64,000 bases of DNA from Thermoanaerobaculales bacterium (GCA_035358815.1 DAOPQC010000009.1:2405-66404), one strand, 5' to 3'; positions 29,070 through 52,426 are shown, numbered from the stretch's first letter. Numbers and translations are program-made. Notes: a model not told the origin generated them from the sequence alone.

Positions 29070-29278
29070 TCGCCCGCACCCGCGTCCGCGCCCGCTTCCG
29101 CGCCCCCGCCGTTGGGATGTCTCTCGTTCCCGTTCCCGTCCCCGTTCCCGTACCCGATGGCCGTTCGGGGTGGATTGAGTTCGTACGTGAAATTTGGAGA
29201 TTGCTGCGACGTCTGGGCGGCGTGCGGCGATCCGGGAACGGGATCGGGGTGGGGCCCTGGACCCTGACCCCGATCCCC
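29070..29278. repeat. Mosaic intergenic repeat locus A (beta C-array, 34-nt alpha module, unique core, G-arm, 11-bp hairpin)
   Basis: CCCGCN-type array at 29070-29110. Alpha module cgttcccgttcccgtccccgttcccgtacccgat at 29125-29158. Inverted partner atccgggaacgggatcggggtgggg at 29230-29254. Perfect hairpin gggatcggggt (29240-29250) / accccgatccc (29267-29277). Confidence 0.85.
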
Positions 29279-29370
29279 CAACTCCTGGTCAGGCGAATGC
29301 GCTGCAGCGACCCGGAAGCCGGAGGGCGACTGACCTCTGAGGATCGTAGACCGCACCGGGAGGGGGCGCG

Positions 29371-31455
29371 CTACTCCTCCTCCTCCTCGCGCTTGCCGGC
29401 GGCGGCGATGATCTTCTCCTGCAGGTGCTTGGGCACCTCGTCGTAGCGGTTGAACTCCATGTGGAAGTCGCCGCGGCCGCCGGTGATCGAACGCAGGGTC
29501 GCCGCGTAGGTCAGCATCTCGGCCAGCGGCACCTGGGCCTTGACGGTGGTGGTGCCGCCTTCGGTGTCCATGCCCTGGACGCGGCCGCGCCGCGAGTTGA
29601 GGTCGCCCATGACGTCGCCCATGCACTCCTCGGGGATGTAGGCCTCGATCTGCATGATCGGCTCGAGCAGGGTCGGGTTGCACTGGGAGGCGCACTCCCG
29701 GAACGCCTTGCGGCCCGCGATCTTGAACGCCATCTCCGAGGAGTCCACCGAGTGCTCCTTGCCGTCGAGCAGGGTGACCTTGAAGTCGACCATCGGGTAG
29801 CCGGCGAGCACGCCGCGCGCCGCGGCCTCCTGGACCCCCTTGTCGACGGCCGGCCGGTAGCCTTGAGAGATCGAGCCGCCGTAGATCTTGTCGACGAACT
29901 CGTAGCCGTTGCCCCGGTTCGGCTCCATGCTGATCCGGCACTCGGCGAACTGGCCCGAGCCGCCGGTCTGCTTCTTGTGGCGCGTCGTCACGTCGGCCGA
30001 GCCGGTGATGGTCTCCCGGTAGGGGACCTTGGGCTGGTGGAGGTTGACGTCCACCTTGTAGCGCTTCTTGAGCCGGCCCACCACCACCTCGACGTGGAGC
30101 TGGCCGGTGCCGGAGATCAGGAGCTCCTTGGTCTGCGGGTCACGGCCGACCGCGATCGTCGGGTCCTCGTCCCGGATCCTGGCCAGCGCGGCCGCCAGCT
30201 TGTCCTCGTCACCCTTCGACTTGGGCTCCAGCGCGAAGCTGATCGAGGCCTCGGGGATCGGCACCGCCGCGACCCGGATCGACTTCTTGGGCGGGCACAG
30301 GGTGTCGCCGGTGTGGGTGTCCTTGAGCTTGGGGACGGCGCCGATGTCGCCGGCCGCGAGCGCCTCCACGTGCTCCAGCTCCTTGCCCTGGACCACCGAC
30401 AGCGCGCCGAGGCGCTCGGAGCCGTCGCGGGTTGCGTTGGCGACGGTGGCGTCGGAGGCGATGCCGCCTGACAGCACCCGCAGCAGCGAGATCCGTCCGG
30501 TGTACGGGTCGGAGATGGTCTTGAAGACGTAGGCGACGAAGGGGGAGTCGGCGGAAACTGCGAGCTCCTGCTCCTCGCCGTCGACGGTGGCGGCGAACCG
30601 GCGCCAGCTCGGGCTCGGCGCGAGGTCGACCAGCGCGTCCATGAGCGGCTGGACGGCGATGTTCTTGCCCCCGGCCAGCGCGAACACCGGACACAGCGCG
30701 CGCGACTCGACGGCCGCCTTCAGCCCCTTGCGGAAGGTCTCCGGTTCGAGGCCGCCGCTCTCGAGGTAGCTCTCCATGAGCGCCTCGTCCTGCTCGGCCA
30801 CCATCTCGAACAGGGCCTCGCGCGCCGCGGCCACGTCGTCGGCCATCGCGGCCGGGATGGCGACCTCGGCGGCCTTGCCGCTCTCGTCGTGCGGCCAGGT
30901 GAAGGCCTTGCCGCTGACCAGGTCGACCACCCCTTCAAACGCTGCCTCCTCGCCGATCGGGAGCTGGACCGGGATCACCTCGCGGCCGTACTTCTGCTGC
31001 AGCGACGCGACCGTGCGCGAGAACGACGCGCGGTCCCGGTCCAGCAGGTTGACGGCGAAGAGCAGCGGCAGCGAGGAGCTGGCGGCCGCCTTCCACAGCT
31101 TGTCGGTCTGGACCTCGGGGCCGGCAACCGCCGACACCAGCATCAGCGCCGCGTCGGCCACCCGCAGCCCCTGCAGCGCGTCGGTGGTGTAGATCCCGTA
31201 CCCGGGCGTGTCGACGAGGTTGACCTTGGTCCCCATGCGGTCGAAGTGGGCGACCGCGGTGTTGATCGTGATCTTGCGCTCCTGCTCGTCCTCGTCGAAG
31301 TCGGTCGTCGTGTTGCCGTCCTCCACCTTGCAGAGCCGATTGACGACGCCCGCGTCGAACAGCATGGCCGACACCAGCGAGGTCTTCCCGGTGTGGGAGT
31401 GCCCGATGACCGCGACGTTGCGGATCGTGTCTGTGGTGTAGGTGTTCGCGCTCAT
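29371..31455 (-). CDS. fusA: Elongation factor G family GTPase (stand-alone paralog, not in an rpsL-rpsG-tuf context)
   Basis: G1 AVIGHSHTGKTS, G3 DTPGY, and EF-G domains II-V throughout (694 aa). Confidence 0.9.
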   Translation of the reverse strand: MSANTYTTDTIRNVAVIGHSHTGKTSLVSAMLFDAGVVNRLCKVEDGNTTTDFDEDEQERKITINTAVAHFDRMGTKVNLVDTPGYGIYTTDALQGLRVADAALMLVSAVAGPEVQTDKLWKAAASSSLPLLFAVNLLDRDRASFSRTVASLQQKYGREVIPVQLPIGEEAAFEGVVDLVSGKAFTWPHDESGKAAEVAIPAAMADDVAAAREALFEMVAEQDEALMESYLESGGLEPETFRKGLKAAVESRALCPVFALAGGKNIAVQPLMDALVDLAPSPSWRRFAATVDGEEQELAVSADSPFVAYVFKTISDPYTGRISLLRVLSGGIASDATVANATRDGSERLGALSVVQGKELEHVEALAAGDIGAVPKLKDTHTGDTLCPPKKSIRVAAVPIPEASISFALEPKSKGDEDKLAAALARIRDEDPTIAVGRDPQTKELLISGTGQLHVEVVVGRLKKRYKVDVNLHQPKVPYRETITGSADVTTRHKKQTGGSGQFAECRISMEPNRGNGYEFVDKIYGGSISQGYRPAVDKGVQEAAARGVLAGYPMVDFKVTLLDGKEHSVDSSEMAFKIAGRKAFRECASQCNPTLLEPIMQIEAYIPEECMGDVMGDLNSRRGRVQGMDTEGGTTTVKAQVPLAEMLTYAATLRSITGGRGDFHMEFNRYDEVPKHLQEKIIAAAGKREEEEE

Positions 31456-31489
31456 GATGTCTCCCTCCGAGAAAGCGATGTCGTCTGGG

Positions 31490-32380
31490 TCAGGTGGCGA
31501 GCTCGATCGAGCTGCCGGTGAGCCGCCGGTACGCCTCGCGGTAGCGCTCGAGGGTCCCGGCGACCACCTCTGCCGGCAGCACCGGCGCCGGCGGCTGCTT
31601 GTTCCAGCCGCTCCTCTCCAGCCAGTCGCGCAGGTACTGCTTGTCGTAGGACGGTTGGCCGCGCCCGGGCTCGTACGAGTCGGCCGGCCAGAAGCGGGAC
31701 GAGTCCGGAGTCAGGGCCTCGTCCATCCACACGATGCGGCCGTCAGGGTCGAGCCCGAACTCGAACTTGGTGTCGGCGATGATGATCCCGCGCTCGAGTG
31801 CATACGCCGCGGCCTCGCGGTAGATCCGCAGGGTCAGGTCGCGCAGCGTCTCGGCAACGCGGCCGCCGACGATGCCGACCATGCTGTCGAAGCCGATGTT
31901 CTGGTCGTGGCCCTCGGTGGCCTTGGTGGCCGGCGTGAAGATCGGCTGCGGGAGCCGCTCCGACTCGCGCAGGCCGGACGGCAGCGCGATGCCGCAGACC
32001 GAGCCGCGCTCACGGTACTCCTGCCATCCCGAGCCCGCGAGGTAGCCCCGGGCGACGCACTCGACCGGGATCGGATCGAGCCGGCGAACCAGCACGCTGC
32101 GGCGGTCGAGCTCGGCGAGGCCGCGAAAGGGCTGCGGGAAGGCCGAGCGCTCGGTCGCCACCAGGTGGTTCGGGACGTCGCCGAACCGGCCGAACCAGAA
32201 GTTCGACAGCTGGGTCAGGATCACGCCGCGTCCGGGGACCCCCGGGGACAGAACGCAGTCGAAGGCGCTGATCCGATCGGTGGCGACCAGCAGCAGGTCG
32301 CCGTCGACGGCGTAGATGTCCCGGACCTTGCCGCGGCTCACCAGCTGTCCCCCCGGGATCGAGGTGGTGAGCAGCGCCAT
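31490..32380 (-). CDS. purC: Phosphoribosylaminoimidazole-succinocarboxamide (SAICAR) synthase
   Basis: GKVRDIY..., LLLVATDRISAFD, and IIADTKFEFG motifs. Confidence 0.9.
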   Translation of the reverse strand: MALLTTSIPGGQLVSRGKVRDIYAVDGDLLLVATDRISAFDCVLSPGVPGRGVILTQLSNFWFGRFGDVPNHLVATERSAFPQPFRGLAELDRRSVLVRRLDPIPVECVARGYLAGSGWQEYRERGSVCGIALPSGLRESERLPQPIFTPATKATEGHDQNIGFDSMVGIVGGRVAETLRDLTLRIYREAAAYALERGIIIADTKFEFGLDPDGRIVWMDEALTPDSSRFWPADSYEPGRGQPSYDKQYLRDWLERSGWNKQPPAPVLPAEVVAGTLERYREAYRRLTGSSIELAT

Positions 32381-32381
32381 T

Positions 32382-32672
32382 TCAGGCTTCCTTGGCCTCG
32401 ATCACCGCCTGGGCCTGCTTGGCCATTCGCGACTTGTAGCGGGAGGCGGTGTTGCGGTGGAGGACGCCCTTCCGCCAGCCGACATCGATGACCGACAGGG
32501 TCGCCGGGAGCAGCGCCTTGACCTGGTCCGCGTCGCCGTCGGCGATTGCGACCCGCATCGCCCGCATCTGCCGCCGCACCCTGGTGCGCACCGACTTGTT
32601 GCGCATGCGCCGCTCGAGTGACTGGCGGTGGTGCTTGCGCGCCTGCCTCTTCGTTCCCTTGATCGTTGCCAT
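32382..32672 (-). CDS. rpsT: 30S ribosomal protein S20
   Basis: Basic 96-aa protein: KRQARKHHRQSLERRMRNKSVRTRVRR...HRNTASRYKSRMAK. Confidence 0.9.
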   Translation of the reverse strand: MATIKGTKRQARKHHRQSLERRMRNKSVRTRVRRQMRAMRVAIADGDADQVKALLPATLSVIDVGWRKGVLHRNTASRYKSRMAKQAQAVIEAKEA

Positions 32673-32758
32673 CTCGGACCTTCTCCTTCAAGCGCCTCCG
32701 GGAGGCGGCACGGGTCGCATATTCTAATCGAAAGTCCGAATCCAGGCTAGTGCCAGGT

Positions 32759-33045
32759 TCAATTCCGGGCTCAATTCCGGGCTCCAGACCCCGTTTCGAT
32801 TCCGGACTCTGGGCCGGTGCCCGTCCCCGCTTCCGCTTCCCCTTCCGCTTCCGCGCCCGGACGGTGCTCAGGACGCGGGAAAGCTGCGGGGGTCTTCGAC
32901 TTGCCACCGTGCTGGGCGGTTCGCTTCCAATGACCTACCCCCCAGGTCATCGGTGACCTTGTCGGCCCACACGGGCCCTGGGGGTGCTCAGAATGACCAC
33001 GGACAGAGTCGGAAGCGGGCGCGGAAGCGGGCGCGGACGCGGGCC
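32759..33045. repeat. Mosaic intergenic repeat locus B (12-nt tandem, C-arm, 150-nt core with hairpin, G-arm)
   Basis: tcaattccgggc x2 at 32759-32782. C-arm CGCTTCC-type at 32818-32858. Core hairpin atgacct/aggtcat at 32930-32950. G-arm at 33011-33045. Its bases 33017-33043 are the exact reverse complement of 29079-29105. Confidence 0.85.
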
Positions 33046-33077
33046 GGTCGGCCGACCCAACCTCCGGCCCCCACGGC

Positions 33078-33908
33078 CTACCGGATGGTCATCCCCAGCG
33101 AGCGCAGCCGCTCCCGAGCGAGGTCGGCCTCGCGGCTGCCCGGGTGCTCGTAGACCACGTACTGCAGGTTGAGCACTCCCTGCCCCTTGTCGCCCAGCTT
33201 GAGGTAGAGCAGGCCCTTCTTGAGCTGGGCGGCGGGCGCCTTGTCGCTCGCCGGGTACTCCTCCAGCACCTGGTCGAAGATCGCGAGCGCCTCCTCGGAC
33301 TTGTCCTGGGCGTCGAGGCACTCGCCGATCCAGTACAGCGCGTTGTCCGACAGCTCGGTCGAGGGCCAGCGCCGCCGGTACTCGCCGAAGCCGTCAGCGG
33401 CGAGGTCGTAGTTGCCGCGCATGTAGTCCTCATAGGCCGCGCGGTAGAGCTCCTCCGGAGATGACGCCGCGGCGGAACCGGCCGCGGCGCCGTCCGGCGG
33501 GACGGCCGCGCCGCCCTCGCCGCCGGGCGCAGGTCCGGCGGCGGTCACCGGCGGCAGGTACTGGCCGGTCGCAGCGGCGGACCGAGCCCTGGCGAGCTCC
33601 TGGGAGATCGCCTCGAGGCGCGTGGTCGTCCGCTCCAGGCTGGCGTCGAGCGCCTCGATCTGCTCCTGGAGCTGCTCGACCCGCATCGCCAGGTCGGCGT
33701 TGGAGCGGGAGGTCTGGGCCGCGCCCTCCTGCAGCTGGCGCTTGATCGCGTCGAGGTCCTGCTTCGCCGGCATCGACTGCGACAGCTGCTCGACCTGAAG
33801 CTGGACGTCGGCGATCTCGCGGTGGAGCAGGGTCATGTCCTCGGACGAGGTGCAGGCTGCAAGCGGCAGCAGCGGGAGAGTCAGGACCAGCGTCCACAGC
33901 ACTCGCAT
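33078..33908 (-). CDS. cpoB: Tol-Pal system protein YbgF/CpoB (coiled coil + TPR)
   Basis: Lipoprotein-like signal LPLLPLAAC. N-terminal coiled coil (QLQVEQLSQ...). C-terminal YbgF TPR block (YRAAYEDYMRGNYDLA...ALYWIGECL). Directly downstream of pal. Confidence 0.8.
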   Translation of the reverse strand: MRVLWTLVLTLPLLPLAACTSSEDMTLLHREIADVQLQVEQLSQSMPAKQDLDAIKRQLQEGAAQTSRSNADLAMRVEQLQEQIEALDASLERTTTRLEAISQELARARSAAATGQYLPPVTAAGPAPGGEGGAAVPPDGAAAGSAAASSPEELYRAAYEDYMRGNYDLAADGFGEYRRRWPSTELSDNALYWIGECLDAQDKSEEALAIFDQVLEEYPASDKAPAAQLKKGLLYLKLGDKGQGVLNLQYVVYEHPGSREADLARERLRSLGMTIR

Positions 33909-33918
33909 CGCGAGCCTC

Positions 33919-34500
33919 CTAGCGCGCGGTGATGACGAAGTGGGCGCGCCGGTTGAGGCGCCACGCCTGTTCGCCGCTGCCGACCTCGAACGGCCTCTCC
34001 TCGCCGTACGAGATCGTGCGCAGGCGCTCGGCCCCGACGCCGAGGAAGATCAGGTAGTCGCGCACCGCCGCCGCCCGGCGCTCACCGAGCGCGAGGTTGT
34101 ACTCGCGTGTGTTGCGTTCGTCGCAGTGGCCCTCGATCAGGATCTGGATCGTGCGGTGCTGCTGCAGCCAGGCCGCGTTGCGGGCCAGCGCATCGCGGTA
34201 CTCGGGCTTGATGTCGTAGAGGTTGGTGTCGAAGAAGATGTCCTCGAGGTAGCCGCCGGCGTTGAGCAGCGCGAGGTCCTCGGGCAGCTCTTCGCGGACC
34301 TCCTCGGAAACCAGGGGCTCGGCAGTCGGCTCGCCGACGATCTCCTCCTCGATGCCCTCGGGCCCCTCACCGGTCCCGGGCGTGGTCGCGGTCGGCGTCG
34401 GAGCGGTCGGGGGCGGCACCTTGGTGCTCTTGCAGGCACCGAGGGTGGCCAGGAGGAGCACGGCGATCAGGGCTGCAGCGAGACGGGAAGTGGGTCTCAT
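33919..34500 (-). CDS. pal: Peptidoglycan-associated lipoprotein Pal (OmpA-like domain)
   Basis: Lipobox LLATLGAC. OmpA-C motifs: IFFDTNLYDIKPEY, IEGHCDERNTREYNLALGERRA, and ISYGEE. Confidence 0.9.
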   Translation of the reverse strand: MRPTSRLAAALIAVLLLATLGACKSTKVPPPTAPTPTATTPGTGEGPEGIEEEIVGEPTAEPLVSEEVREELPEDLALLNAGGYLEDIFFDTNLYDIKPEYRDALARNAAWLQQHRTIQILIEGHCDERNTREYNLALGERRAAAVRDYLIFLGVGAERLRTISYGEERPFEVGSGEQAWRLNRRAHFVITAR

Positions 34501-34627
34501 TCGAGGCCTCCTTGACGGTCACTCTACCAGCCCGGATCCGGGCTCACAAGCTCTTGAGAGCTGGTCTCGGCGGGGCGGTGTGGAATCGACGCGCGATGTG
34601 CCCGATGTCACTGGAGGAGAGGATATA

Positions 34628-34768
34628 GGGGATAGGGAATAGGGGATAGGGGAGAGGGGAGAGGGGAGAGGGAACAGGGGATAGGGGAGAGGGAGTAGGG
34701 GAGAGGGCCTAGCTGCCTTGTGGGGTAGCCATCCTGGCTGCCTTGTGGGGTAGCCATCCTGGCTGCCC
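34628..34768. repeat. Mosaic intergenic repeat locus C (12 G-tracts in GGGGA(T/G)A heptamer array + 25-nt tandem repeat)
   Basis: 34628-34707 holds 12 runs of G3-4 separated by 3-4 nt. 34713-34762 is ctgccttgtggggtagccatcctgg x2 (period 25) plus a partial third unit. Confidence 0.9.
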
Positions 34769-34770
34769 AG

Positions 34771-35358
34771 CTACGGGTTCGCGTCGTCATCCGCGAGGAG
34801 CCCGCCGCCGGGACGGTCGAGCCGGCCGGCCCGGTGGAGCTTGGCGAGGTAGTCGTAGACGACGATCGAGCCGGCCACCGCGAGGTTGAGGGAGGGCACG
34901 AGGCCCCACTGCGGGATCTGGACGACGGTCGCCGCGGTCGCGACCAGCTCCTCGGGGATGCCGCCGAGCTCGGCCCCGACCAGGAAGCACGGGCGATCCG
35001 GGTAGCTCGCCTCGAACAGGCCGACCGCGCGCCGGTGCAGCTCCACCGCCACCAGCTGCCAGCCACGCTGCTCGAGGTGCGACCGGAAGGCGCCGGCGTC
35101 GCGAAGGTGGAGAACGGTGGTGTAGAGCTCGGCGGTGCGCGCGGCCTCGACGTTCCAGTCACGCTCCCCGACCAGCAGCACCTCGGTCGCGGCGGTGGCG
35201 TGGGCGGTGCGCACCAGCGAGCCGACGTTGTGCTCCTTGGAGATGTTCCAGGCCGCGATGGCGAACGGCCGCAGCCCGTCGCGGTAGTCCTGGCGGCGGC
35301 GCTGCCGGCGGTCGGCGCGGCGCGCGGCGGTCCACGCGGCCTTCTTGGGATCCACCAT
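34771..35358 (-). CDS. TrmH/SpoU-family RNA 2'-O-methyltransferase
   Basis: SpoU motifs: NVGSLVRTA, FLVGAELGGIPEE, and IPQWGLVPSLNLAVAGSIVVYD. Confidence 0.75.
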   Translation of the reverse strand: MVDPKKAAWTAARRADRRQRRRQDYRDGLRPFAIAAWNISKEHNVGSLVRTAHATAATEVLLVGERDWNVEAARTAELYTTVLHLRDAGAFRSHLEQRGWQLVAVELHRRAVGLFEASYPDRPCFLVGAELGGIPEELVATAATVVQIPQWGLVPSLNLAVAGSIVVYDYLAKLHRAGRLDRPGGGLLADDDANP

Positions 35359-35398
35359 CGGACCCAGGGTAGAGCATGCGGCCGCCGCCGGGAACCAC

Positions 35399-35434
35399 AG
35401 AAAAAACGAAACCCCGCGCGCGGCGGGATTTCGT
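35399..35434 (-). terminator. Rho-independent terminator
   Basis: The minus strand reads acgaaatcccgcc-gcgc-gcggggtttcgt followed by TTTTTT. That is a ~12-bp GC-rich stem and a 6-T run. Confidence 0.75.
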
Positions 35435-35514
35435 CATGGTGGGTATCCCCACCCGGACTTCTTCAGTGGGTTTCGCGGCCGTAAAGTCCGTTGAACACCC
35501 GCGGTCCGAAGGGA
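35400..35514 (-). ncRNA. Candidate ~115-nt structured RNA or attenuating leader (family unknown)
   Basis: Bracketed by the promoter and terminator above. Internal helices: gtcc/ggac, cggactt/aagtccg (7 bp), and ggtggg-gata-cccacc. No convincing ORF. Confidence 0.35.
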
Positions 35515-35521
35515 CACCTCC

Positions 35522-35550
35522 AATATGTGTGCACGCCGCGGCTGTGTCAA
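35522..35550 (-). promoter_or_regulatory. Candidate sigma-70-type promoter
   Basis: On the minus strand: TTGACA (35550-35545), a 17-nt spacer, then CATATT (35527-22). Located inside the cdd/trmH-like gap. Confidence 0.45.
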
Positions 35551-35652
35551 GGGGGCGTGGGAGCTCGTCTTCGGGAGCGAATCCGACCGCGCCGACGGTG
35601 AGACTCCCGGCCGCTGGATGAGCTTGGCTGCAGGCCTCGATCTGCCCGGGGA

Positions 35653-36063
35653 TCAGCCGCGCTCGAGCGTCCGCCCGTCGAAGGCGTGGGGCAGCAGCTG
35701 GGACACCGAGGTGACGACCCGTTCACCGGCCGGGTTGGCCAGGATGACCGGGAAGTCACCGAACTCCGACAGCACCTGCCGGCAGGCGCCGCACGGCGAG
35801 GCCGGCGGCACGGAGTCCGTGACCACGGCGAGCGCCTGGAAGCGGCGAGCGCCGGCGGCCACGGCCGCCGCCACCGCGTTCCGCTCGGCGCAGACCGAGA
35901 GGCCGAACGAGGCGTTCTCGACGTTGCAGCCGCTGCTCAACCGTCGGTCCGGCAGCAGCAGCGCCGCTCCGACCCGAAACTGCGAGTAGGGGGCGTAGGC
36001 GTGGTCCCGCGCCGCGGTGGCCGCTGCGACCAGGCGGTCGATGTCATCAGAAGAGAAATCCAT
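35653..36063 (-). CDS. cdd: Cytidine deaminase
   Basis: ATG 36063. Zinc motifs CAERNA and PCGACRQ. The upstream 46 codons of the track ORF run through repeat DNA. Confidence 0.85.
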   Translation of the reverse strand: MDFSSDDIDRLVAAATAARDHAYAPYSQFRVGAALLLPDRRLSSGCNVENASFGLSVCAERNAVAAAVAAGARRFQALAVVTDSVPPASPCGACRQVLSEFGDFPVILANPAGERVVTSVSQLLPHAFDGRTLERG

Positions 36064-36125
36064 GGCTCCATGATACCGAGCCGAATGAGGTGCGGAGCGC
36101 CCGTTGTCGATTCTGACCTTCTCTC

Positions 36126-36278
36126 GGGAACGGGAACGGGGACGGGAACGACAGCTGGCCGTTGTGGGGTCGCCATCCTGGCTGCCTTGTGGGGTAGCCA
36201 TCCTGGCTGCCCGGAAGCGGGCGCGGGCGAGGGGGCGGGCGGGGGCCCTACCCCCTATTCCCTACATCCCATCCCCTC
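36126..36278. repeat. Mosaic intergenic repeat locus D (alpha G-array, 25-nt tandem, beta G-array, inverted gamma array)
   Basis: gggaacgggaacggggacgggaac at 36126-36149. 36153-36212 is ~95% identical to 34711-34768. ggaagcgggcgcgggcgagggggcgggcggggg at 36213-36245. C-rich ccctaccccctattccctacatcccatcccctc at 36246-36278. Confidence 0.9.
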
Positions 36279-36281
36279 AAG

Positions 36282-36307
36282 AAAAAGGTGACCGCCCGAA
36301 GGCGGTC
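36282..36307 (-). terminator. Probable Rho-independent terminator of the FecR-like gene
   Basis: The minus strand reads gaccgcc-ttcg-ggcggtc, then acc and TTTTTCTT. It lies 40 nt past the stop at 36347. Confidence 0.55.
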
Positions 36308-36346
36308 GATGGAGACGTGTGATGTCGCTTGAGGATCTGGCTGTCG

Positions 36347-38491: not shown

Positions 38492-38564
38492 CGTCCACCT
38501 CCCGTTCCGCCAACAGGCAGTGCAACCGACGTGCCAGCGGGATTTCGGGAACGCGGTGCGTTCA

Positions 38565-38940
38565 CCCGTTTCCGTTTCCGTCTCCGCGCCCCTGCCCGAG
38601 ATGGCGCTCGTGCACCGTGCGGTCTCATCGGGGACGGAGACGGGCACGGAGACGGGCAGGGAGACGGGCAGGGACGCGGGCGGCGGCCATTTGACCTGTC
38701 ACCGGTCACCGATCACTCTCCCGGAGGCGGGAACGGGAACGGGAATCCGGCTTCGCCTTCCGGCTCCGTTCGGCGAACTCCGCCGTGACGAGTCGGCTCC
38801 GCCGTGACAAGCGGGGACGGGCACCCTTCGACTCGCGGCGCTGCGGCGCCGCTCGCTCAGGGCAGGCCCCTCGGGCTCGGAAGCGGAAGCGGGCGGGCGC
38901 CCAATCCCCCAGATCCCAGATCCTGGCCGGGTGGGGGCGG
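38565..38940. repeat. Mosaic intergenic repeat locus E
   Basis: C-arm cccgtttccgtttccgtctccgcgcccctgcccg at 38565-38598. 31-nt core. G-arm (GGAGACGGGCA-type) at 38630-38686. gggaacgggaacgggaat at 38729-38746. ggaagcggaagcgggcgggcgc at 38879-38900. cccagat x2 at 38908-38921. Confidence 0.8.
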
Positions 38941-38941
38941 A

Positions 38942-44153: not shown

Positions 44154-45944
44154 TCAGGGGCGCACGAGCCAGCCGGCGGCGGTCCCGTCCTCGAACCCGC
44201 TGCCGAAGATCAGCGAGCCCGGGCCGGAGGGAGTCGGAGTCGGCGGCGGGGTGGGCGTGGCCACCGGCGTGCTGGTCGGCGTGGCGGTGGGCGGTACGGG
44301 CGTCGTCGTCGGAGTCGGGGTGGGAGTGTGGGTCGGCGGCGGCGGGGTGAGTGTGGGTGTGCTGGTCGGCGGCACCGGCGTCGCGGTGTCAGTGGCGGTG
44401 GCAGTGGGTGTCGGGGTGCTGGTCGGCGGCAGCGGCGTCGCCGTGGCGCTTGGGGTCGGCGTGCGGGTCGGTGTGGCGGTCGCGCTGCTGGTCGAGGTCG
44501 GGGTGCGGGTCGGTGTGGCGGTCGGCGGCACCGGCGTCGCTGTGGGGCTCGGCGTCGCCGTGCGGGTGGGCGTCGCCGTGGCGGTCGCGGTGTTGCTCGG
44601 GGTGCGGGTCGGCGTGGGCGTCGCGGTCCGGGTGGGCGTCGGCGTGCTGGTGCGAGTGGGCGTCGCCGTCGGCCCGCTGGTCACCGACAGCTCGAGCCGG
44701 TAGAGCTGGGCGCTGTCGGTGGCGTCGCCGGCGAGCTCGACGAAGTAGGTTCCCGGCCCGCTGGGCAGTGGCACGCTCGGCAGCGCCTCGGGCAGGCCGG
44801 CGCCGTTGGCGTCCGCGAACGCGAGCTCGGTGGTCCCGTTGACGTCGAGCACCCGCAGCGACAGGTCGTGGATGGCGAGCGAGTCGAACGAGCTCCCCGC
44901 GGTGCAGCTGCCGTTCGGGTTCTGGGGGCCGCTCAAGTAGGTCCAGCCGGTCGGCGTGACGGTGATCGAGAGCGAGGCGCCGCTGCCGACGGTGAGGCTG
45001 TAGTCGTCGTAGTCGGAGTCGTCGTCGACCGACAGGTTGTCGATGGTGAGCAGGCCCGTCGGCGTCCCCAGGGGGTACGCCGTGGACGGGTCGTCGTCGT
45101 GCTCGGCGCCGTCGCCGTAGCCGCGGTTGGCGGCCAGGATGTCGTCGTGCTGGGGCCCGTCGAAGGCGCTCGAGTAGTAGGGCTCCATCAGCTTGGTCTG
45201 GTTGACCGGGCAGACATGCTGCAGCCCGAGACCGTGGCCGTGCTCGTGGGCGACCACGTTGCGCAGCCGCAGCGAGTTGCCGGTGGTCACGGAGTAGAAC
45301 GAGTCGCCGGTGTCGATGACCATGTCCCCGACGTCGGGGTAGAAGTTGTAGCCGAGGATGCCGGAGTTGCCGTCGATGGTATGGCCGCCGAAGCGCACGT
45401 CGCCCCGCACGCCGAGTGATCCCGCCGAGTTGACGAAGGCCGCGCCGTCATCGCTCGGCTGGTAGAGGTAGCTGATGCCGGTCAGCTCGCCCCAGCGATC
45501 CAGCACCTGCTGGAGCAGCGCCAGCCAGGTGGCCTCGTCGCCGTAGATCCCGGTCAGGAAGGCGCGCAGGTTGCTTGGCGAGCTCGGCTCACCGGCGTAG
45601 CCGGGGATCGCGGTGCCGTCGGGGACGACGCTCCAGGTCAGGGTGGTGGGGTCGCCCTGGCCGAGCCCGCTGCCGTTGCTGGCCGTGCTCGACCAGCGGT
45701 TGGAGTCCGGGAACTGGTACTCGCCGAGCGGCGGGGCGGAGAGCGAGTGGGTCACCCGGGCCAGGGCGGCCTTCGCGATCGCCTGCTCGACGTACCACTG
45801 CGGGGTGCCGTCCTTGAAGCACAGCGCCGGCGCGGGCGGGGGGCCCGGCTGGGCCGGCGGGCGGTCCGCTGCGGCAGCGCAGGCGGCCGCGAGGAGCATC
45901 GCGATTCCGAGCGCCGCGGGCGCCCCGGGGCGTGCCGTGCTCAT
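44154..45944 (-). CDS. Secreted metzincin (matrixin/M10-like) zinc protease with PPC-like domain and ~150-aa Pro/Thr linker
   Basis: ATG 45944. Signal peptide ...[10 protein letters not shown]. Zinc site [13 protein letters not shown] (HExxHxxGxxH). Pro/Thr repeats. C-terminal tail [19 protein letters not shown]. Confidence 0.8.
44229..44680 (-). repeat. Intragenic low-complexity Pro/Thr (TPTxT) repeat-coding region
   Basis: Encodes [55 protein letters not shown]... The mirror-frame ORF 44065..44703 (GV-rich) is its artefact. Confidence 0.85.
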
Positions 45945-45979
45945 GCGCCCTGTCTCCCCAATGCCGTGCGCCGACGCCC

Positions 45980-47353
45980 TCACGGGCTGGTGACGGACCA
46001 CGCGGTGGTGGTGCCGGACTCGAAGCCGTCGGAGAACAGCGGCTCGCCGCCGCCCTCGAAGATGCAGACGCCGATCGCCTGCGGGACGTAGTTGGTCAGG
46101 ATGTTCTCGATCACCCGGTCGTGGAACTCCATCAGGTTGTCGCCGCAGCCGGCGATGTGGCAGTAGCTCATCACCGTCCCGGGCCCGCCCGGGCACGAGA
46201 TCGGGCCCTGGTAGCAGCCGGCCTCGCCCGAGTAGCACTCGTCGATCGGCGGCTCGTAGCAGTGGGTGTGTCGGGACCCGAAGTTGTGGCCGAGCTCGTG
46301 GCCAACGATGAAGGCGTCGCCGGCGAGGTAGTCGATCTTGAACACCTTGTTGAAGCTGTAGCCGTAGGAGTGCGAGCACAGCCCGCCGAGCCAGGCGATG
46401 CCGGAGGCCGAGTAATCGGACGGCGACTTGCCCGAGAGCATCGCCGCCAGGGCGCGGTCGACGTTGCCGTAGTGGGCGCTCCAGTACGAGGAGAACTCGC
46501 TCAGCTCGGCGGCCGACGCCGCTCCGCCGCTGTTCTGGTTGTAGGGGTCCGATCCGACTCGCAGGATGGTGTCGCCCTGGAGGAGCGTCACGTCGAGGTC
46601 GCGCTCGTACATCACGTTCATCGCCGCCACCAGGTCGGCGATGTAGTCGAGCGCGGCGGCCTGGTTGTTGCCGAACTTGAGCTGCATGAGCTCGGTGTCG
46701 GTGTCGAACGCGATGACGGCCTCGAGGCCGGCGGAGGACACCGCCTCCGCCGGCGCCCGGTCCCCGGGCGGCAACGGCTCGAGTGGGGCCTCGAGCGTCG
46801 CGTCCCCGGCGGAGCAGGTCCACGGCTGCACCGTCCAGCCCTCGGCGGCCAGGCGCTCGGCCGCGGACACGACCAGCAGATCGGCGCCGGCTGGGATCAG
46901 GTCGTAGACCGTGCCGTCGGCGATCACGAACCCGCGCAGGCTGCGGGTGGCCGGATCGAGCGAGAGCAGGATCCGGCCCTCCCCGCCGGCGAGCTCGCCC
47001 CACAGGTGGATGCGGGACGAAGCGGCCAGGGGCGTGACCCCGGCCGGGCTCACCAGGAGCCGGAGCGCCATGAGGTCGACGATCTGGTGGCGGGCGACGA
47101 TGACCGGACGGCGCTGTCCGGGGGCGACCGGCCACGCCTCGATGGTCACCTGCGCGCCCGGGGCTGCCGCCGCGAGCCGGTCGAGCACCGTGGCCGGGAC
47201 GACGACGCGCTCCCGAAGGACGCCGCCGGGCGAGACCTCGAGGCGGCCGGGGATCGCCTCTGCGATCGTGATGCCAGCGGCTGCCGAGGCGCCGCTCAGC
47301 GCCGACAGCAGGACCAGCCAGACCGCGGTCGCGGTACGGCATCGAGATGACAT
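45980..47353 (-). CDS. Secreted reprolysin-like (M12B-like) zinc metalloprotease
   Basis: ATG 47353. Signal peptide ...[11 protein letters not shown]. Zinc site [13 protein letters not shown]. Met-turn region TVMSYC. C-terminal tail [19 protein letters not shown]. Confidence 0.75.
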
Positions 47354-47454
47354 CTCAACGCTGGAGATGCTCCTGGCGATGGGGTCCTCCGTCCTCCGAG
47401 GAACCGGTTCCCGGGGCGGTTGAAGTTCGGAGTGACCCCCCTCACAATCACCCG

Positions 47455-47964
47455 GTGCAGGTGGTTCTCGGCCTCGGCGGCAACCTGGGTGACGTGCCGG
47501 CCGCGCTCGTCGCCGCGCGTGCGCAGCTCGGAGCATGGACGCAGGTGCTGGCCGCGTCGCGGCTCTACCGGACGGCGCCGGTGGGCCCGGTCGCGCAGCC
47601 GCCCTTCCTCAACGCGGCGCTGCTCGTCGGCGTCGACCTCGGCCTCGGCGAGCTGCTCGAGCGGTGTCACGAGCTGGAGGCCGCGGCCGGCCGGAACCGT
47701 GCGGGCGAGCCGCGCTGGGGCCCGCGGCCGCTCGACATCGACCTGCTGGCTGCGCGTGACATCGTCCACCGCGGACCGCGGCTCGAGCTGCCCCACCCCC
47801 GCCTCCACGACCGCGCGTTCGCGCTCGTGCCGGCGGCGGAGGTGGTGGGCGGCTGGATCCACGCGCCGTTCGGCCGGACCCTCGACGCGCTGGCAGCGGA
47901 CGCGCTGGGGCGCGACCCCGCCGCGATCCTCGAGGTCGTCCCGGACGATCGCTGGCGGACCTGA
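47455..47964 (+). CDS. folK: 2-amino-4-hydroxy-6-hydroxymethyldihydropteridine diphosphokinase (HPPK)
   Basis: LGLGGNLGD, SRLYRTAPVG, PRPLDIDLL, and LPHPRLHDRAFAL. GTG start at 47455 (or 47461). Confidence 0.8.
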   Translation: MQVVLGLGGNLGDVPAALVAARAQLGAWTQVLAASRLYRTAPVGPVAQPPFLNAALLVGVDLGLGELLERCHELEAAAGRNRAGEPRWGPRPLDIDLLAARDIVHRGPRLELPHPRLHDRAFALVPAAEVVGGWIHAPFGRTLDALAADALGRDPAAILEVVPDDRWRT

Positions 47965-48046
47965 GCGGCGCCGGCCGAGGCTTGGCAGGTCTCGGGGCGC
48001 GCGCTACACTGCCCGACCGCGGCGACGCGCCGCAGGAGGTTTCGAC

Positions 48047-49621
48047 ATGAGTGCGAAGCGTGGGGGCACCAGGAAGAACGCGAAGGCCACGGCGACGGCT
48101 CTCGACAAGCTGGGGATCGGTCCCCTGCTCGGGCTCCAGCCGGTCAATCAGGGCGCGTGCACCGGGAAGTGGATCTCGTGTGCGGGCGGCCAGGAGCTGA
48201 TCTCGGTCAGCCCGGCGGACGGCTCGCCGATCGCCGCTGTGCGGCAGGCCGACGAGGCCGCGTACGAAAAGGTCGTTGCGGAGGCTGTGGCCGCGTTCCC
48301 GGCCTGGCGGATGACGCCGGCACCGGCGCGCGGCGAGGTCGTCCGCGACCTGGGCAACGAGCTCCGCGCGGTCAAGGAGCCGCTCGGCAAGCTGGTGTCG
48401 CTCGAGATGGGGAAGATCCTCTCCGAAGGGCTCGGCGAGGTCCAGGAGATGATCGACATGTGCGACTTCGCGGTCGGGCTGTCGCGCCAGCTCTCCGGTC
48501 CGACGATGGCCTCCGAGCGCCCGCGCCACCGGATGTACGAGCAGTGGCATCCGCTGGGGGTGGTCGGCATCATCACCGCCTTCAACTTCCCGGTGGCGGT
48601 CTGGGCGTGGAACGCGGCGCTGGCCGCGGTGTGCGGCGACACCATGGTCTGGAAGCCGTCGTCCGACACCCCGCTGACCGCGATCGCGGTCCAGAACATC
48701 TGCAACCGGGTGATGGAGCGGCACAATCTCTCCGGGATCTTCAACCTGGTGATCGGCCCCGGCCGCACCGTTGGCGAGCGGATGATCAACGACCGGCGGG
48801 TGCCGCTGGTCTCGTTCACCGGCTCGACCGCGATGGGCCGGCGCGTGTCCCAGGCCACGGCCACCCGCTTCGGGCGCAGCATCCTCGAGCTCGGCGGCAA
48901 CAACGCGATCCTGGTCGAGCCGGACGCCGATCTCGACCTGACGCTGCGCGCCGTCCTGTTCGCCGCGGTCGGCACCGCCGGCCAGCGCTGCACCTCCCTG
49001 CGCCGGCTGTTCCTGCACAAGAAGATCGCGAAGCAGTTCCTGGCCCGTCTGGTCAAGGCCTACGGCAGCATCACGATCGGCAACCCACTCGAGAAGGGCG
49101 TGCTGATGGGTCCGCTGGTCAACGCGGCCGCGGTCGAGGACTACCTCGCGGCACTCGCCACGGCCCGCAAGCAAGGCGGCAAGATCCTGTACGGTGGCGG
49201 CGTGGTCGACCGGCGTGGATTCTTCGTCGAGCCGGCCATCGTCAAGCTCTCGTCGCAGGTCCCGATCGCCCGCGAGGAGACGTTCGCGCCGATCCTCTAC
49301 GTCATGGAGTACGACGACCTCGAGCAGGCGATCGCGGTCCACAACTCGGTCGACCAGGGCCTGTCCTCCGCGGTCTTCACCTCGAGCATGTACTCGGCGG
49401 AGAAGTTCCTCTCCCACGAGGGCTCGGACTGCGGCATCGCCAACGTCAACATCGGCACCTCCGGTGCCGAGATCGGCGGCGCCTTCGGCGGCGAGAAGGA
49501 GACTGGCGGCGGGCGCGAGGCGGGATCGGACGCCTGGAAGGCCTACATGCGGCGCCAGACCTGCACCATCAACTGGAGCAGTCAGCTGCCGCTCGCGCAG
49601 GGCGTGAAGTTCGACGTCTAG
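48047..49621 (+). CDS. Aldehyde dehydrogenase, ALDH7/alpha-aminoadipic (piperideine-6-carboxylate) semialdehyde dehydrogenase-like
   Basis: FTGSTAMGR, ELGGNNA, and catalytic Cys GTAGQRCTS. ALDH7-type C-terminus: NVNIGTSGAEIGGAFGGEKETGGGREAGSDAWKAYMRR. Confidence 0.85.
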   Translation: MSAKRGGTRKNAKATATALDKLGIGPLLGLQPVNQGACTGKWISCAGGQELISVSPADGSPIAAVRQADEAAYEKVVAEAVAAFPAWRMTPAPARGEVVRDLGNELRAVKEPLGKLVSLEMGKILSEGLGEVQEMIDMCDFAVGLSRQLSGPTMASERPRHRMYEQWHPLGVVGIITAFNFPVAVWAWNAALAAVCGDTMVWKPSSDTPLTAIAVQNICNRVMERHNLSGIFNLVIGPGRTVGERMINDRRVPLVSFTGSTAMGRRVSQATATRFGRSILELGGNNAILVEPDADLDLTLRAVLFAAVGTAGQRCTSLRRLFLHKKIAKQFLARLVKAYGSITIGNPLEKGVLMGPLVNAAAVEDYLAALATARKQGGKILYGGGVVDRRGFFVEPAIVKLSSQVPIAREETFAPILYVMEYDDLEQAIAVHNSVDQGLSSAVFTSSMYSAEKFLSHEGSDCGIANVNIGTSGAEIGGAFGGEKETGGGREAGSDAWKAYMRRQTCTINWSSQLPLAQGVKFDV

Positions 49622-49700
49622 GTGTTCGCGCCGCGTTGGCCTCTTCGGAGCACGGCGTAGCCCGCAGTGCTGGCGATCGGCCTCCGCGGCGCGAACACCT
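49620..49700 (+). other. 16-bp perfect inverted repeat (long stem-loop) abutting the ALDH stop codon
   Basis: aggtgttcgcgccgcg (49620-49635) pairs with cgcggcgcgaacacct (49685-49700). 49-nt loop with internal gcac/gtgc helix. No T-run. Confidence 0.7.
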
Positions 49701-49786
49701 CGGGATGCGCTGCGCGCATCCAATTGCGGTGCGGGGCGGAGGCCGGCGTCAAGCACCTCGACAGCGGGCGCGCATCGGGTTTGGTA

Positions 49787-49924
49787 CGTTCCCGTTCCCG
49801 TGCCCGCTCCCGTACCCGATGGCGGATTCCTGCCCACTATTGCGCGGAGCCGTGGGAGCCAAGCCGGTTTCACCTCCGTCCTCTTCTGCAATCGGGAACG
49901 GGGACGGGAACGGGAGCGGGAACG
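49787..49924. repeat. Mosaic intergenic repeat locus F (34-nt alpha module, 70-nt core, inverted 34-nt alpha module)
   Basis: cgttcccgttcccgtgcccgctcccgtacccgat at 49787-49820 is 32/34 identical to 29125-29158. atcgggaacggggacgggaacgggagcgggaacg at 49891-49924. The arms are ~85% complementary. Confidence 0.9.
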
Positions 49925-50033
49925 ATCAGGAGACAGCCGTCGGGATGAACGGTCGGCGCGGCTGTGGGCGACCTCGTTGATCATGCGGTGGCGGCGTCCG
50001 GCGAGTTTTCATTCGTCGACTGAATTGAATAGT

Positions 50034-51386
50034 ATGGGCGGCATGGAAGGCCGCATTCTGATCGTCGATGACGACGCCTCGGTCCGCACCGTGCTGCGCC
50101 GGATCCTGGGCTCTGCCGGGTACAGCGTGCAGGAGGCGGGTGACGCGTTCCAGGCCCTCGACCTGCTCGATGCCCAGCCCCCGGACGCCGCCCTGCTCGA
50201 CCTCAAGATGCCCGGCATGGACGGGCTCGGGCTGATCGCCAACCTGCGCCAGCGCGGCCTCGAGATCCCGGTCGTGGTGCTGACCGGTCACGGCGACGAG
50301 TTCACCTCCCAGCAGGTGCTCGACGCCGGGGCCGCCGCCTACCTCACCAAGCCGCCCGACCGGGCCGACCTCCTGCTCGCGGTGCGCGGCGCGGTCGCCC
50401 AGGGCCGGGTGGCCCGGGAGCTGGCCGAGGCGGAGGAGCCGCCGCCGCTGCTCGGCACGAGTGTCGCCGTCGAGCTGGTCCGGCAGCAGATCGCCAGGGT
50501 CGCGCCGTCCCACGCCACGGTCCTCATCCAGGGCGAGTCGGGGACCGGCAAGGAGCTGGTGGCCCGCCGCCTGCACCACCTCTCGGAGCGGGCCCGGCGG
50601 CCGTTCGTCCGTGTCAACTGCGCGGCGATCCCGAGCGAGCTCATCGAGTCCGAGCTGTTCGGCCACGAGAAGGGATCGTTCACCGGCGCCCACCGCCGGC
50701 AGATCGGCAAGTTCGTCCAGGCCGACAGCGGCACCATCTTCCTCGACGAGGTCGGCGACATGAGCCTGAGCACCCAGGCCAAGGTGCTGCGGGTGCTGCA
50801 GGACGGCGAGGTCGAGCCGGTCGGCGCCGGCCGTCCGTTCCAGGTCGACGTGCGGGTGGTGGCGGCCACCAACAAGGACCTGCCGGCCAACGTCCGCGAG
50901 GCCACCTTCCGCGAGGACCTCTACTACCGGCTGGCGGTGGTGGTGCTGGTGACCCCGCCGCTGCGCGACCACCTGGACGACATTCCGCTCCTGGTCGACC
51001 ACTTCACCGCCCACTACTGCCGCGAGTACAACCGCCGCCCCAAGCGGTGGAGCCCGGCGGCGCTTGAGCAGCTGCGCCGGCACCGCTGGCCGGGGAACGT
51101 CCGCGAGCTGAAGAACGTCGTCGAGCGGGCCGTCATCATGGAGCTCGAGGACACCATCGACCGGGTCGCGATCGCCGGCGCTCCGGGCGCGGCCGCGGGC
51201 GCCGAGAGCCTGCTCGATGCGTCGACGCTGGCCGCGTTCCAGCAGGCGTCCGAGATCGCCTACCTGCGCCACCAGCTCGACCGCCACGGCTGGAACGTCG
51301 CCGCGACGGCACGGGCCATCGACACCCCGCGCTCGAACCTCTACAAGAAGCTCCAGGCGTATGGGATCAGCCGGGAGGACACGTGA
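50034..51386 (+). CDS. NtrC-family sigma-54-dependent response regulator
   Basis: Receiver domain (ILIVDDD...[11 protein letters not shown]). AAA+ domain with GESGTGKE and [16 protein letters not shown]-terminal Fis-type HTH. Start ATG 50034 or 50043. Confidence 0.9.
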
Positions 51387-51967
51387 TCAACTGCATCACC
51401 CTCGCCGATCTGGCGGTCCATGGCGCCCACCAGAAGGGCCACTTTCGCCTCTCCTCCGGGCTCCACTCGTCCGACTACCTGCAGTGCGCCCTCTACCTCG
51501 CCAACCCGGTGCGCGCCGAGCGCGCCGGCCAGGAGCTGGCGCAGTCGATCACCGCGGCGATGGTCGAGCCGGGTGCGATCGTCGCACCAGCCCTCGGCGG
51601 GCTGATCATCGGGCACGAGACCGCGCGAGCGTTCAGGGTGCCGTTCTTCTTCACCGAGCGGGTGGAGGGGAAGATGGCGCTGCGCCGGGGCTTCGGGGTC
51701 GATCCCAAGCAGGCGATCGTGGTCGTCGAGGACGTGGTGACGACCGGCGGCTCGTCGAACGAGGTCATCGACCTGCTCGAGGGCCTCGGCGCCTGCGTCA
51801 TCGGCGTCGCGTCGCTGGTGAACCGCTCGGACGCTGACAACCCCTTCGACCCTCGGCCCTACACCGCCCTGCTGCGGGCCTCGTTCCCGACCTGGAAGCC
51901 CACCGCATGCCCGCTCTGCCGGCAGGGCAGGCCGCTCGTCAAGCCGGGGTCGAGGCCGGTCAAGTAG
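51383..51967 (+). CDS. pyrE: Orotate phosphoribosyltransferase
   Basis: GHFRLSSGLHS and the PRPP loop VVVVEDVVTTGGS. The GTG start overlaps the stop of the upstream regulator (gtga). Confidence 0.85.
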   Translation: MINCITLADLAVHGAHQKGHFRLSSGLHSSDYLQCALYLANPVRAERAGQELAQSITAAMVEPGAIVAPALGGLIIGHETARAFRVPFFFTERVEGKMALRRGFGVDPKQAIVVVEDVVTTGGSSNEVIDLLEGLGACVIGVASLVNRSDADNPFDPRPYTALLRASFPTWKPTACPLCRQGRPLVKPGSRPVK

Positions 51968-51973
51968 CGCTCA

Positions 51974-52410
51974 GGGGATAGCGATGAGGGGATAGGGGCT
52001 AGGGCCCCTGCCCGCCCGCTGCCGGCTGCACGGACGGCTTCGTTCCCGTTCCCGTTCCCGTGCCCGCGCCGATCCGCCTCCGCGCGCGACGTCGTTCCCG
52101 TTCCCGTTCCCGTTCCCGAACCCGCGCCCGCTTCCGCGCCCGGTTCCGAGCGACGTTTCGCTCCCCTTCCCGTTCCCGTCCCCGTTCCCGATCCCGTGTC
52201 CGCTCCCGCTCGTTCGCTCCGTCCTCGAGAGCGCTTCGCGCCGATTCTCTGGAAGCGCTCCCCGAGGGTGCCACCTTTGGCGATTTCGGGTCCTGAGCAA
52301 TTTGTCAGGAGCATCGTCGTCCCGAAATCGCCAAAGATGGCACGCCCGCGGGAGGCGCTTCCCTCGCTCTCTCCTCGTCCCCGGGGAGCGGAAGCGGGTG
52401 CGGGCGCAGC
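51974..52410. repeat. Mosaic intergenic repeat locus G (gamma G-array, three C-rich hexamer arrays, 113-nt imperfect palindrome, beta G-array)
   Basis: Gamma array at 51974-52004. C-arrays at 52041-52070, 52093-52147 and 52164-52212. Palindrome at 52251-52363 with 23-nt arms (52268-52290 / 52321-52343, 1 mismatch) and apical hairpin tcctga/tcagga. gagcggaagcgggtgcgggcgc at ~52385-52410. Confidence 0.9.
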
Positions 52411-52426
52411 CAGGTTCGCCCTGGCC

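Follow-up and report, generated by a model that had tools for sequence, protein, structure and literature searches.

The stretch of DNA analysed here (64,000 nucleotides, GCA_035358815.1 DAOPQC010000009.1:2405-66404; in its full length called the window) has a GC content of about 70% and comes from a metagenome-assembled genome (MAG) of Thermoanaerobaculales (Acidobacteriota). Seven intergenic gaps of the window, A to G, probably carry a family of small non-coding, non-autonomous mosaic hairpin repeats that is lineage-wide in Thermoanaerobaculales and neighbouring Acidobacteriota and resembles repetitive extragenic palindromes (REPs), bacterial interspersed mosaic elements (BIMEs) and miniature inverted-repeat transposable elements (MITEs). 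The modules are dispersed and non-coding, stand in conserved sub-orders between an upstream terminator and a downstream promoter, and turn over between species. The arrays within them change by whole units between strains. The best-supported reading is that the family accumulates where it is harmless and reshuffles fast.

A first-pass annotation, made from the sequence alone, had compared the layout of these gaps with BIME/REP-type mosaics or with MITEs bounded by terminal inverted repeats (TIRs), and the REP-like module delta, the recurring composites, the differences between orthologous gaps and the hairpin arms agree with this comparison. It had also failed to recognise a described repeat family. 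No Rfam family matched any of the gaps, and no description of the family was found in the searchable literature for the hexamer and delta sequences.

Modules of the seven gaps

The limits of the gaps were taken from public gene calls. Regular-expression scans placed all (CCCGNN)x3 and (CCGNNN)/(CGGNNN)x4 arrays of the window within the seven gaps, which account for about 4% of its length, and a BLAST depth map against related contigs showed sharply bounded repeated modules in all seven. In six control gaps of the same window (135-725 nt) the depth map showed no repeated modules. The confinement of the modules to these gaps, as first annotated, was therefore reproduced. Their preference for intergenic DNA extends beyond the window: in 304 kb of related contigs, where 82% of the bases are genic, 66 arrays were intergenic and 6 genic.

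An assembly artefact was ruled out as the source of the arrays because five independent assemblies carry them. The EF-G protein of the window is identical residue for residue in GCA_035417745.1, GCA_035431145.1, GCA_020047475.1, JGI 3300009669 and ENA ERZ27257490, and the corresponding contigs are at least 99.9% identical to the window.

At least eight module types were distinguished. The four proposed initially (alpha, beta, gamma and delta) were all confirmed, but that inventory was incomplete and epsilon, zeta, eta and theta have to be added. The arms of the hairpin elements are short-period arrays, (CCGNNN)n on the 5' side and (NNNCGG)n on the 3' side of a variable core, with the unit types CCCGTT (alpha), CCGCTT/CCGCGC (beta) and a variant, CCGTCT. 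Gamma is an array of G4N3 heptamers and delta a 25-nt unit. Epsilon and theta (ggatgcgc-tgc-gcgcatcc) are palindromes, zeta is a pair of GTCACGGCGGAG direct repeats running into an alpha C-array, and eta is a hairpin of about 110 nt with conserved ends, found in four copies, one of which has a different stem sequence. The cores had been described as unique and lower in GC. This was upheld, with 59-65% GC compared with about 70% in the window, and the cores of A, B and F have no copies elsewhere. The gaps and their modules are as follows (a row without strand has no orientation assigned).

Gap A, 29021-29370, flanking genes tandem on the minus strand
29067-29110, + strand: beta C-rich period-6 array, including a 27-mer at 29079-29105
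29125-29158, + strand: alpha C-arm, (CCCGNN)5
29159-29230: unique core, 59% GC, without copies elsewhere
29231-29288, + strand: short alpha G-arm (29231-29254), then a gamma-like C-tract heptamer stretch
Gap B, 32673-33077, flanking genes tandem on the minus strand
32812-32859, + strand: beta C-arm (CCGCTT/CCGCGC units)
32860-33009: unique 150-nt core
33010-33045, + strand: beta G-arm, holding the reverse complement of the 27-mer
Gap C, 34501-34770, flanking genes tandem on the minus strand
34616-34707, + strand: gamma array of 12-13 heptamers GGGGA(T/G)A, G4Hunter score up to 2.64
34708-34768, + strand: tandem pair of delta units, each with the tag TTGTGG and the hairpin GGTAGCC-ATCCT-GGCTGCC
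Gap D, 36064-36346, flanking genes tandem on the minus strand
36123-36150, + strand: alpha G-array, opening the recurrent composite alphaG-delta-betaG-gammaC
36153-36212, + strand: two tandem delta units, 95% identical to those of gap C
36213-36278, + strand: beta G-array up to about 36245, followed by a stretch of gamma C-tract heptamers
36281-36309, - strand: intrinsic terminator of the FecR-DUF6600 gene, gaccgcc-ttcg-ggcggtc plus T-run; it marks the repeat boundary and is outside the repeat family
Gap E, 38492-38941, flanking genes tandem on the minus strand
38565-38681, + strand: element E1, with C-arm 38565-38598 (CCGTYT), core of about 30 nt and G-arm 38629-38681 (GGAGAC)
38722-38745, + strand: alpha G-array
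38746-38811, - strand: zeta, GTCACGGCGGAG direct repeats plus ggcgaagccggat
38812-38877, - strand: epsilon palindromic module, gcctgccctgagcgagcggcgcc..gcgccgcgagtcgaagggt
38878-38923, + strand: beta G-array, then gamma C-tract heptamers (cccagat)
Gap F, 49622-50042, flanking genes tandem on the plus strand
49620-49721: hairpin with 38-nt arms right after the aldehyde dehydrogenase stop codon, then theta (49698-49721)
49787-49924: alpha hairpin element, with C-arm 49787-49820, unique core of about 70 nt and G-arm 49891-49924
Gap G, 51968-52426, flanking genes convergent
51973-52005, + strand: short gamma G-heptamer array
52041-52211, + strand: alpha and beta C-rich arrays, 170 nt
52251-52362: eta long hairpin, conserved ends gcgctccccgagg ... 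gcacgcccgc
52384-52407, + strand: beta G-arm closing the element

The alpha element of gap F is the cleanest, its 40-nt arms being 83% complementary. Many modules recur in the loci retrieved for comparison (numbered with L). Zeta is dispersed in nine of them (L126, L127, L128, L133, L141, L158, L163, L168 and L169), epsilon is also present in L126 (in two gaps), L048 and L149, and theta has a copy in L126. Eta was found in L126 and L150, while the L128 copy has the same ends and another stem sequence; four copies of two stem types are too few for a formal test of covariation. More than 10 of the delta-bearing metagenome loci show the recurrent composites alphaG-acatccgggcgttgt-delta-betaG(-gammaC) and delta-beta-zeta'. 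Such sub-orders recur across dozens of related contigs, so that the order of modules is conserved beyond the genome of the window, which speaks for the mosaic layout that was proposed.

The blocks reported as common to several loci were found at the same positions and identities. One 20-mer occurs exactly at 29131 (+), 52171 (+), 36131 (-) and 49893 (-), 33017-33043 reads exactly as the reverse complement of the 27-mer at 29079 (+), and 34711-34768 and 36153-36212 are identical at 57 of 60 positions (95%). With up to 2 mismatches the 20-mer has 13 matches in the window, compared with 0.01 expected by chance. However, its value as evidence for a family is low. The pattern used in the scans, CGTTCCCGTNCCCGTTCCCG with one free position, gave at least 120 matches in genomes of many phyla and at least 120 in viral contigs; the 20-mer is therefore low-complexity sequence of a generic kind, without diagnostic value. 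In the loci of the genome scan about half of the arrays are inside called genes, mostly in actinomycete loci. Eight low-GC matches (L021, L052, L065, L082, L084, L087, L100, L106) were set aside as unrelated single arrays outside any rRNA or intervening-sequence (IVS) context. A separate case is L085 (4430-4510), where a palindromic alpha array (C-arm, 9-nt loop, G-arm) is apparently in frame within a coding region and would be translated into a linker, PVPAPVPVPV..GSGAGTGTGTG, that joins two repeats of the cysteine-rich motif CP(M/I)H..CP.CGM. Among viral contigs the alpha pattern is ubiquitous and delta nearly absent (1 match), and a phage origin is thus not indicated.

Delta is better defined. 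After the tag TTGT(A/G)G comes a hairpin whose 7-bp stem includes one G-U pair and whose loop has 5 nt (GGTAGCC-ATCCT-GGCTGCC); a second GTAG lies within the stem. Stem variants are compensatory (GCAGCC/GGCTGC and GCAGGC/GCCTGC). The window has 4 copies, in gaps C and D, all of them direct tandems. A scan of metagenomes with a delta 20-mer found 53 loci, in which the units are arranged as singles, tandem pairs and inverted doublets (L142/L144). Among 60 copies about half have the tag TTGTAG and the rest, including all copies of the window, TTGTGG. The features that define GTAG-tagged REPs, including a conserved GTAG at one end, have been listed, and TIR-associated Y1 transposases have been reported in Acidobacteria (PMC3733652). 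The stem-loop, the compensatory changes and the arrangement of the copies match that list, the GTAG tag does so in about half of the copies, and delta is classed as a putative REP-class element. A search of all fetched loci for a REP-associated tyrosine transposase (RAYT), made by phmmer with an approximate E. coli RAYT sequence as the query, gave a match only in L105. In addition, L142 (21-1036) and L144 (10179-11194) contain arrays of about 1 kb in which delta-type units form inverted doublets (ggctgcc-ttggtg-gcaggctggaagcctaccccacaa).

Paired arms, turnover and alternative explanations

In the first description a C-rich arm preceded a G-rich arm around a core, whatever the strand of the flanking genes. 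The order was confirmed: where strict alpha arrays of opposite type are adjacent, C comes before G in 22 pairs and G before C in 2 (p = 3.6e-5), and both exceptions are Streptomyces loci. The independence from gene strand carries no weight as evidence, because an inverted repeat reads alike on both strands, so that its C-then-G order cannot depend on the strand of the genes. What is informative is the absence of the opposite, G-first order. Linear DNA with G-rich 3' ends, as in telomeres, has the same polarity, and in RNA this order would favour a duplex over a G-quadruplex.

The two arms of an element also tend to consist of the same kind of unit. Agreement of unit types was 0.494 within elements and 0.405 between non-cognate pairs, and none of 5000 permutations reached the observed value. 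Concordant arms are found in B (beta/beta), E1 (CCGTCT/AGACGG), F (alpha/alpha) and L187 (GTGCCC/GGGCAC). Several elements are predicted to fold better than shuffled sequences: the alpha element of gap F (z of -6.4 and -4.7), the eta region 52215-52410 (-5.9), E1 (-3.1 and -3.7 on the two strands) and B (-3.2). The suggestion that the arms could form long inter-arm duplexes is thus supported for F, E, B and G.

The same annotation had attributed G-quadruplex (G4) potential to the arms, and in silico this is evident. The seven gaps hold 11 of the 17 G4Hunter windows scoring at least 1.75, with gamma reaching 2.64, and their canonical G3N1-7 motifs number nine on the plus strand and about as many on the minus strand. 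On these in silico scores G-quadruplexes may have a role. The gaps could be imagined as functional G-quadruplex/i-motif DNA or RNA switches that control neighbouring genes, for which the scores and motif counts speak. This explanation is nevertheless extremely unlikely: most G-arrays face a nearby complementary C-array with which a duplex is predicted, the C-first order speaks for avoidance of G-quadruplexes and not for their use, beta arrays have mostly G2-G3 tracts, and the position relative to promoters or start codons is not conserved across species.

Differences between near-identical strains are mainly inside the heptamer array. Three of the 4 single-nucleotide polymorphisms (SNPs) that separate L001 from the window are within the 92-nt gamma array, and the sole indel of L003, exactly 7 nt or one heptamer, is in the same array. 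Such variation by whole units, together with substitutions of unit type, would also be produced by independent local microsatellite expansions, that is, slippage in GC-rich non-coding DNA with neither mobility nor common descent, in which case the shared blocks would be coincidental. The abundance of the 20-mer pattern in unrelated genome loci and viral contigs is in line with this, as are the unique cores of A, B and F and the fact that the gene cassettes described in the next section are matched by the arms alone. Unconstrained slippage, however, predicts neither paired arms with concordant units nor a 22:2 polarity. Nor does it account for the complex modules (the 27-mer, the 25-nt delta, epsilon, zeta and eta), which many contigs share in exact or near-exact form and in conserved orders, or for six other gaps of the same window without arrays. 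As the whole explanation slippage is highly improbable.

Between species entire modules differ. Four syntenic relatives were compared: L126, L127 and L128, whose YbgF proteins are 81%, 80% and 70% identical to that of the window, and L170. All keep the promoter region of rpsT, the terminator after the FecR-DUF6600 gene and the ribosome-binding regions, while the modules between these landmarks differ among them and from the window. For example, the beta element of gap B is present only in the window and absent as a whole from the orthologous gaps of L126 and L127, and gap A of L126 holds the eta hairpin which the window carries in gap G. The comparison of orthologous gaps proposed at the outset thus revealed differences in presence and absence.

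The terminator at 36281-36309 is conserved in four species (window, L126, L127 and L128), which indicates that the clade uses classical terminators. The modules of gap D lie past it and before the next gene, in transcriptionally dead space. This bears on a further alternative, in which the elements are selected bidirectional terminators or insulators, with the C-arm as a loading site for Rho (rut) and the hairpin or the G-rich non-template strand as a pause or R-loop site. All seven gaps of the window are tandem or convergent, a polymerase arriving from either side meets a C-rich arm first, about 200 nt of gap G (52010-52215) are 50% C and 25% G, and strong hairpins are predicted. However, gap D already has its canonical terminator upstream of the modules, and no T-run was seen after the arms on either strand, so that the arms are not canonical terminators. 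The arrays are as frequent in divergent gaps of the related contigs (6 of 27) as in tandem (24 of 95) and convergent ones (8 of 25), which argues against a dedicated terminator role, and the elements are not conserved at orthologous gaps. We therefore regard this alternative as very unlikely. Slippage, termination and G-quadruplex switching are each less consistent with the data than a dispersed family of mosaic hairpin repeats.

Elsewhere public gene calls and Pfam show ordinary housekeeping genes in the window, among them fusA, purC, rpsT, ybgF/pal, cdd and the genes for a SpoU methylase, PBP1A, a FecR-DUF6600 protein, a sigma-54 regulator and an aldehyde dehydrogenase. In the cdd/spoU gap a sigma-70-type promoter (cttgaca-N17-catatt) and an intrinsic terminator belong to a conserved unit of about 120 nt that resembles a small RNA (35385-35510, - strand). 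L126 and L127 have nearly identical versions of the unit and L128 a recognisable one, and it is without an Rfam family (best match E = 0.91); the consensus fold of the four sequences comprises 40 pairs, and compensatory changes affect 2 of these. An in-frame TGA at 4625-4627 interrupts a formate-dehydrogenase-like gene (3569-6307, + strand) at VDHCART*HAPTVAGL..SFGSGAMTNS and is most likely a selenocysteine codon rather than the boundary of two genes. Directly downstream of tRNA-Val and tRNA-Asp, adjoining a PemK toxin-antitoxin pair, are direct repeats of 125 nt (55882-56006 and 56230-56354, 99% identical) and 41 nt (56046-56086 and 56201-56241), which may be integration-site scars. Finally, the coding sequence of a Peptidase_M10 gene includes tandem repeats whose periods are 57 and 99 nt, with 75-80% matches (44360-44670, - strand).

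Hexamer arms around PF05635 genes

The arrays form inverted arms in intergenic DNA in MAGs that bear the labels Acidobacteriota, delta proteobacteria and Planctomycetota, and in several loci they accompany a gene. The arms of L020 flank an open reading frame (ORF) that matches PF05635 (23S_rRNA_IVP, 6.4e-19) and TIGR02436 (9.6e-19), and L053, L040, L013 and L026 contain arrays with a PF05635 ORF or its internally deleted remnants. The gene of L040, which is labelled as a Thermoanaerobaculia MAG, adjoins an alpha C-arm. One arm of L053 is beside the ORF start with the partner arm about 800 nt away, and in L014 the ORF is about 400 nt from a set of G-arrays. Deletion derivatives of these cassettes were found in L013, L026 and L062/L124. 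The last two have 95-nt cores with only the first and last codons of the ORF, placed in opposite orientations between identical arms.

In a reverse test, homologues of the L053 protein were chosen by protein sequence alone. All four independent loci (L185, L187, L190 and L193) carry (CCCGTN)n just upstream of the start codon and (NACGGG)n at or just past the 3' end of the ORF. The proteins are 74-75% identical between loci of different phylum labels and most PF05635 homologues are located on very short contigs (<3 kb), both of which fit a mobile, repeat-flanked cassette. Separately, the cassettes of L188 (1-1234), L189 (186-962) and L053 (945-1280) were seen to adjoin IS4/IS1380-like DDE transposase genes or their remnants, and L187 and L188 share an identical cassette with different downstream flanks. 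No rRNA was found in the loci examined, and the literature on PF05635 and IVS proteins yielded no description of flanking arrays. The first-pass annotation could not have seen this link to cassettes elsewhere.

A broader proposal can be formulated from these loci, although it is tentative and rather unlikely. The C-first hexamer arms, 5'-(CCCGNN)n...(NNCGGG)n-3', would be the signature of an undescribed, phylum-crossing mobile cassette built on a PF05635 gene. The cassette would be released or processed via a long stem and leave ORF-less progeny, which together with REP-type hairpins would build the mosaics of Thermoanaerobaculales. Its proposed spread, equally doubtful, covers Acidobacteriota, Myxococcota, Desulfobacterota and Planctomycetota.

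Possible mechanism and relation to known systems

A mechanism can be outlined in which transposition and/or recombination spreads the modules and rearranges them. Delta would probably owe its movement to a Y1 enzyme of the RAYT type whose gene is located outside the window in the same genome, while the arrays would lengthen and shorten by replication slippage, the elements being mostly selfish or neutral passengers. Any action they have would take the form of long RNA or single-stranded-DNA hairpins, e.g. as RNase III-type processing sites or 3'-end barriers. The C-first order might be explained by the sequence of synthesis: a C-arm made first would stay unfolded until the G-arm emerges and pairs with it, whereas a G-arm made first could trap itself as a G-quadruplex. 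As hexamer arms bracket PF05635 genes in other phyla, the alpha elements may be ORF-less relatives of those cassettes.

Several observations weigh against this picture. The inter-arm fold of element A is no better than that of shuffled sequences (z about -1), and the arms of A, B, E, F and G, 20-40 nt long, are only 70-90% complementary. Gene calls and Pfam gave no transposase, RAYT, reverse transcriptase or PF05635 gene in the window. Inspection of the arm ends gave no target-site duplications, and the orthologous gaps are too diverged to define precise empty sites. The RNA-level and single-stranded-DNA steps of the mechanism are all inferred. Concerning the cassettes, searches of six-frame ORFs with hidden Markov models (HMMs) found no PF05635 ORF or remnant, either in the window or in 334 kb of contigs that bear delta, and the cores of the window elements have no similarity to the cassettes, the likeness being limited to the low-complexity arms. 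This likeness could be convergent, since unrelated genomes and viruses commonly contain the 20-mer pattern, often within genes. With no PF05635 ORF and with matches confined to the arms, descent of the alpha elements of the window from such cassettes is plausible but unproven from the sequences compared.

If a family of mosaic hairpin repeats is indeed present, it would extend the small mosaic repeats known from bacteria by a new class, in a poorly studied phylum known mainly from metagenomes. Such repeats break assemblies, in keeping with the short contigs of most PF05635 homologues. Two features stand out, namely the strict polarity of the arms and the arm type common to PF05635 cassettes across phyla. 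The former bears on the balance between duplex and G-quadruplex in transcripts or single-stranded DNA. The arm rule also connects PF05635, the widespread family of "23S rRNA intervening-sequence" proteins, with the arms and hints at how those genes move and are expressed. In practice, the modules could be used as strain-typing markers, and ORF calls across these gaps call for caution.

Among known systems, REPs, their paired form (REPINs) and BIMEs are similar in that delta is a short GC-rich imperfect palindrome with a 5' GTAG-type tag and G-U pairs in its stem, and in that the units are intergenic, form tandem or inverted clusters interleaved with short conserved motifs, and turn over fast between species. 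The mosaic differs in consisting mostly of period-6 and period-7 tract arrays and not of REP units. Half of the delta copies have GTGG instead of GTAG, the window has no RAYT gene, and divergent gaps are not depleted. The regular alternation with conserved linkers known from BIMEs is not seen, the delta units of the window being direct tandems within array-dominated mosaics.

MITEs share the two inverted arms around a short non-coding core, the dispersed copies, the presence or absence at orthologous sites and, in other phyla, deletion derivatives of a gene-carrying form. In contrast to MITEs, the arms are slippage-prone tandem arrays of variable length and not fixed TIRs, no target-site duplication was found, and the gene between alpha arms elsewhere encodes a PF05635 four-helix-bundle protein and not a transposase.

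The 23S rRNA IVSs that carry a PF05635/TIGR02436 gene are comparable in having a small four-helix-bundle ORF between inverted repeats which could form a long stem, and ORF-less versions of them exist. Alpha hexamer-array arms surround such genes in Acidobacteriota, Myxococcota (a 'delta proteobacterium' MAG), an assembly named Desulfobulbus sp. and Planctomycetota. The window elements differ from them: they are ORF-less and outside rRNA, and similar in their arms alone, not their cores.

The STRR heptanucleotide repeats of heterocystous cyanobacteria are tandem intergenic heptamers (STRR1: CCCCA(A/G)T). Gamma is comparable, as GGGGATA/GGGGAGA are likewise tandem intergenic heptamers with a C4/G4 tract. 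The two differ in phylum and in sequence, and in Thermoanaerobaculales the heptamers are one module of a larger mosaic.

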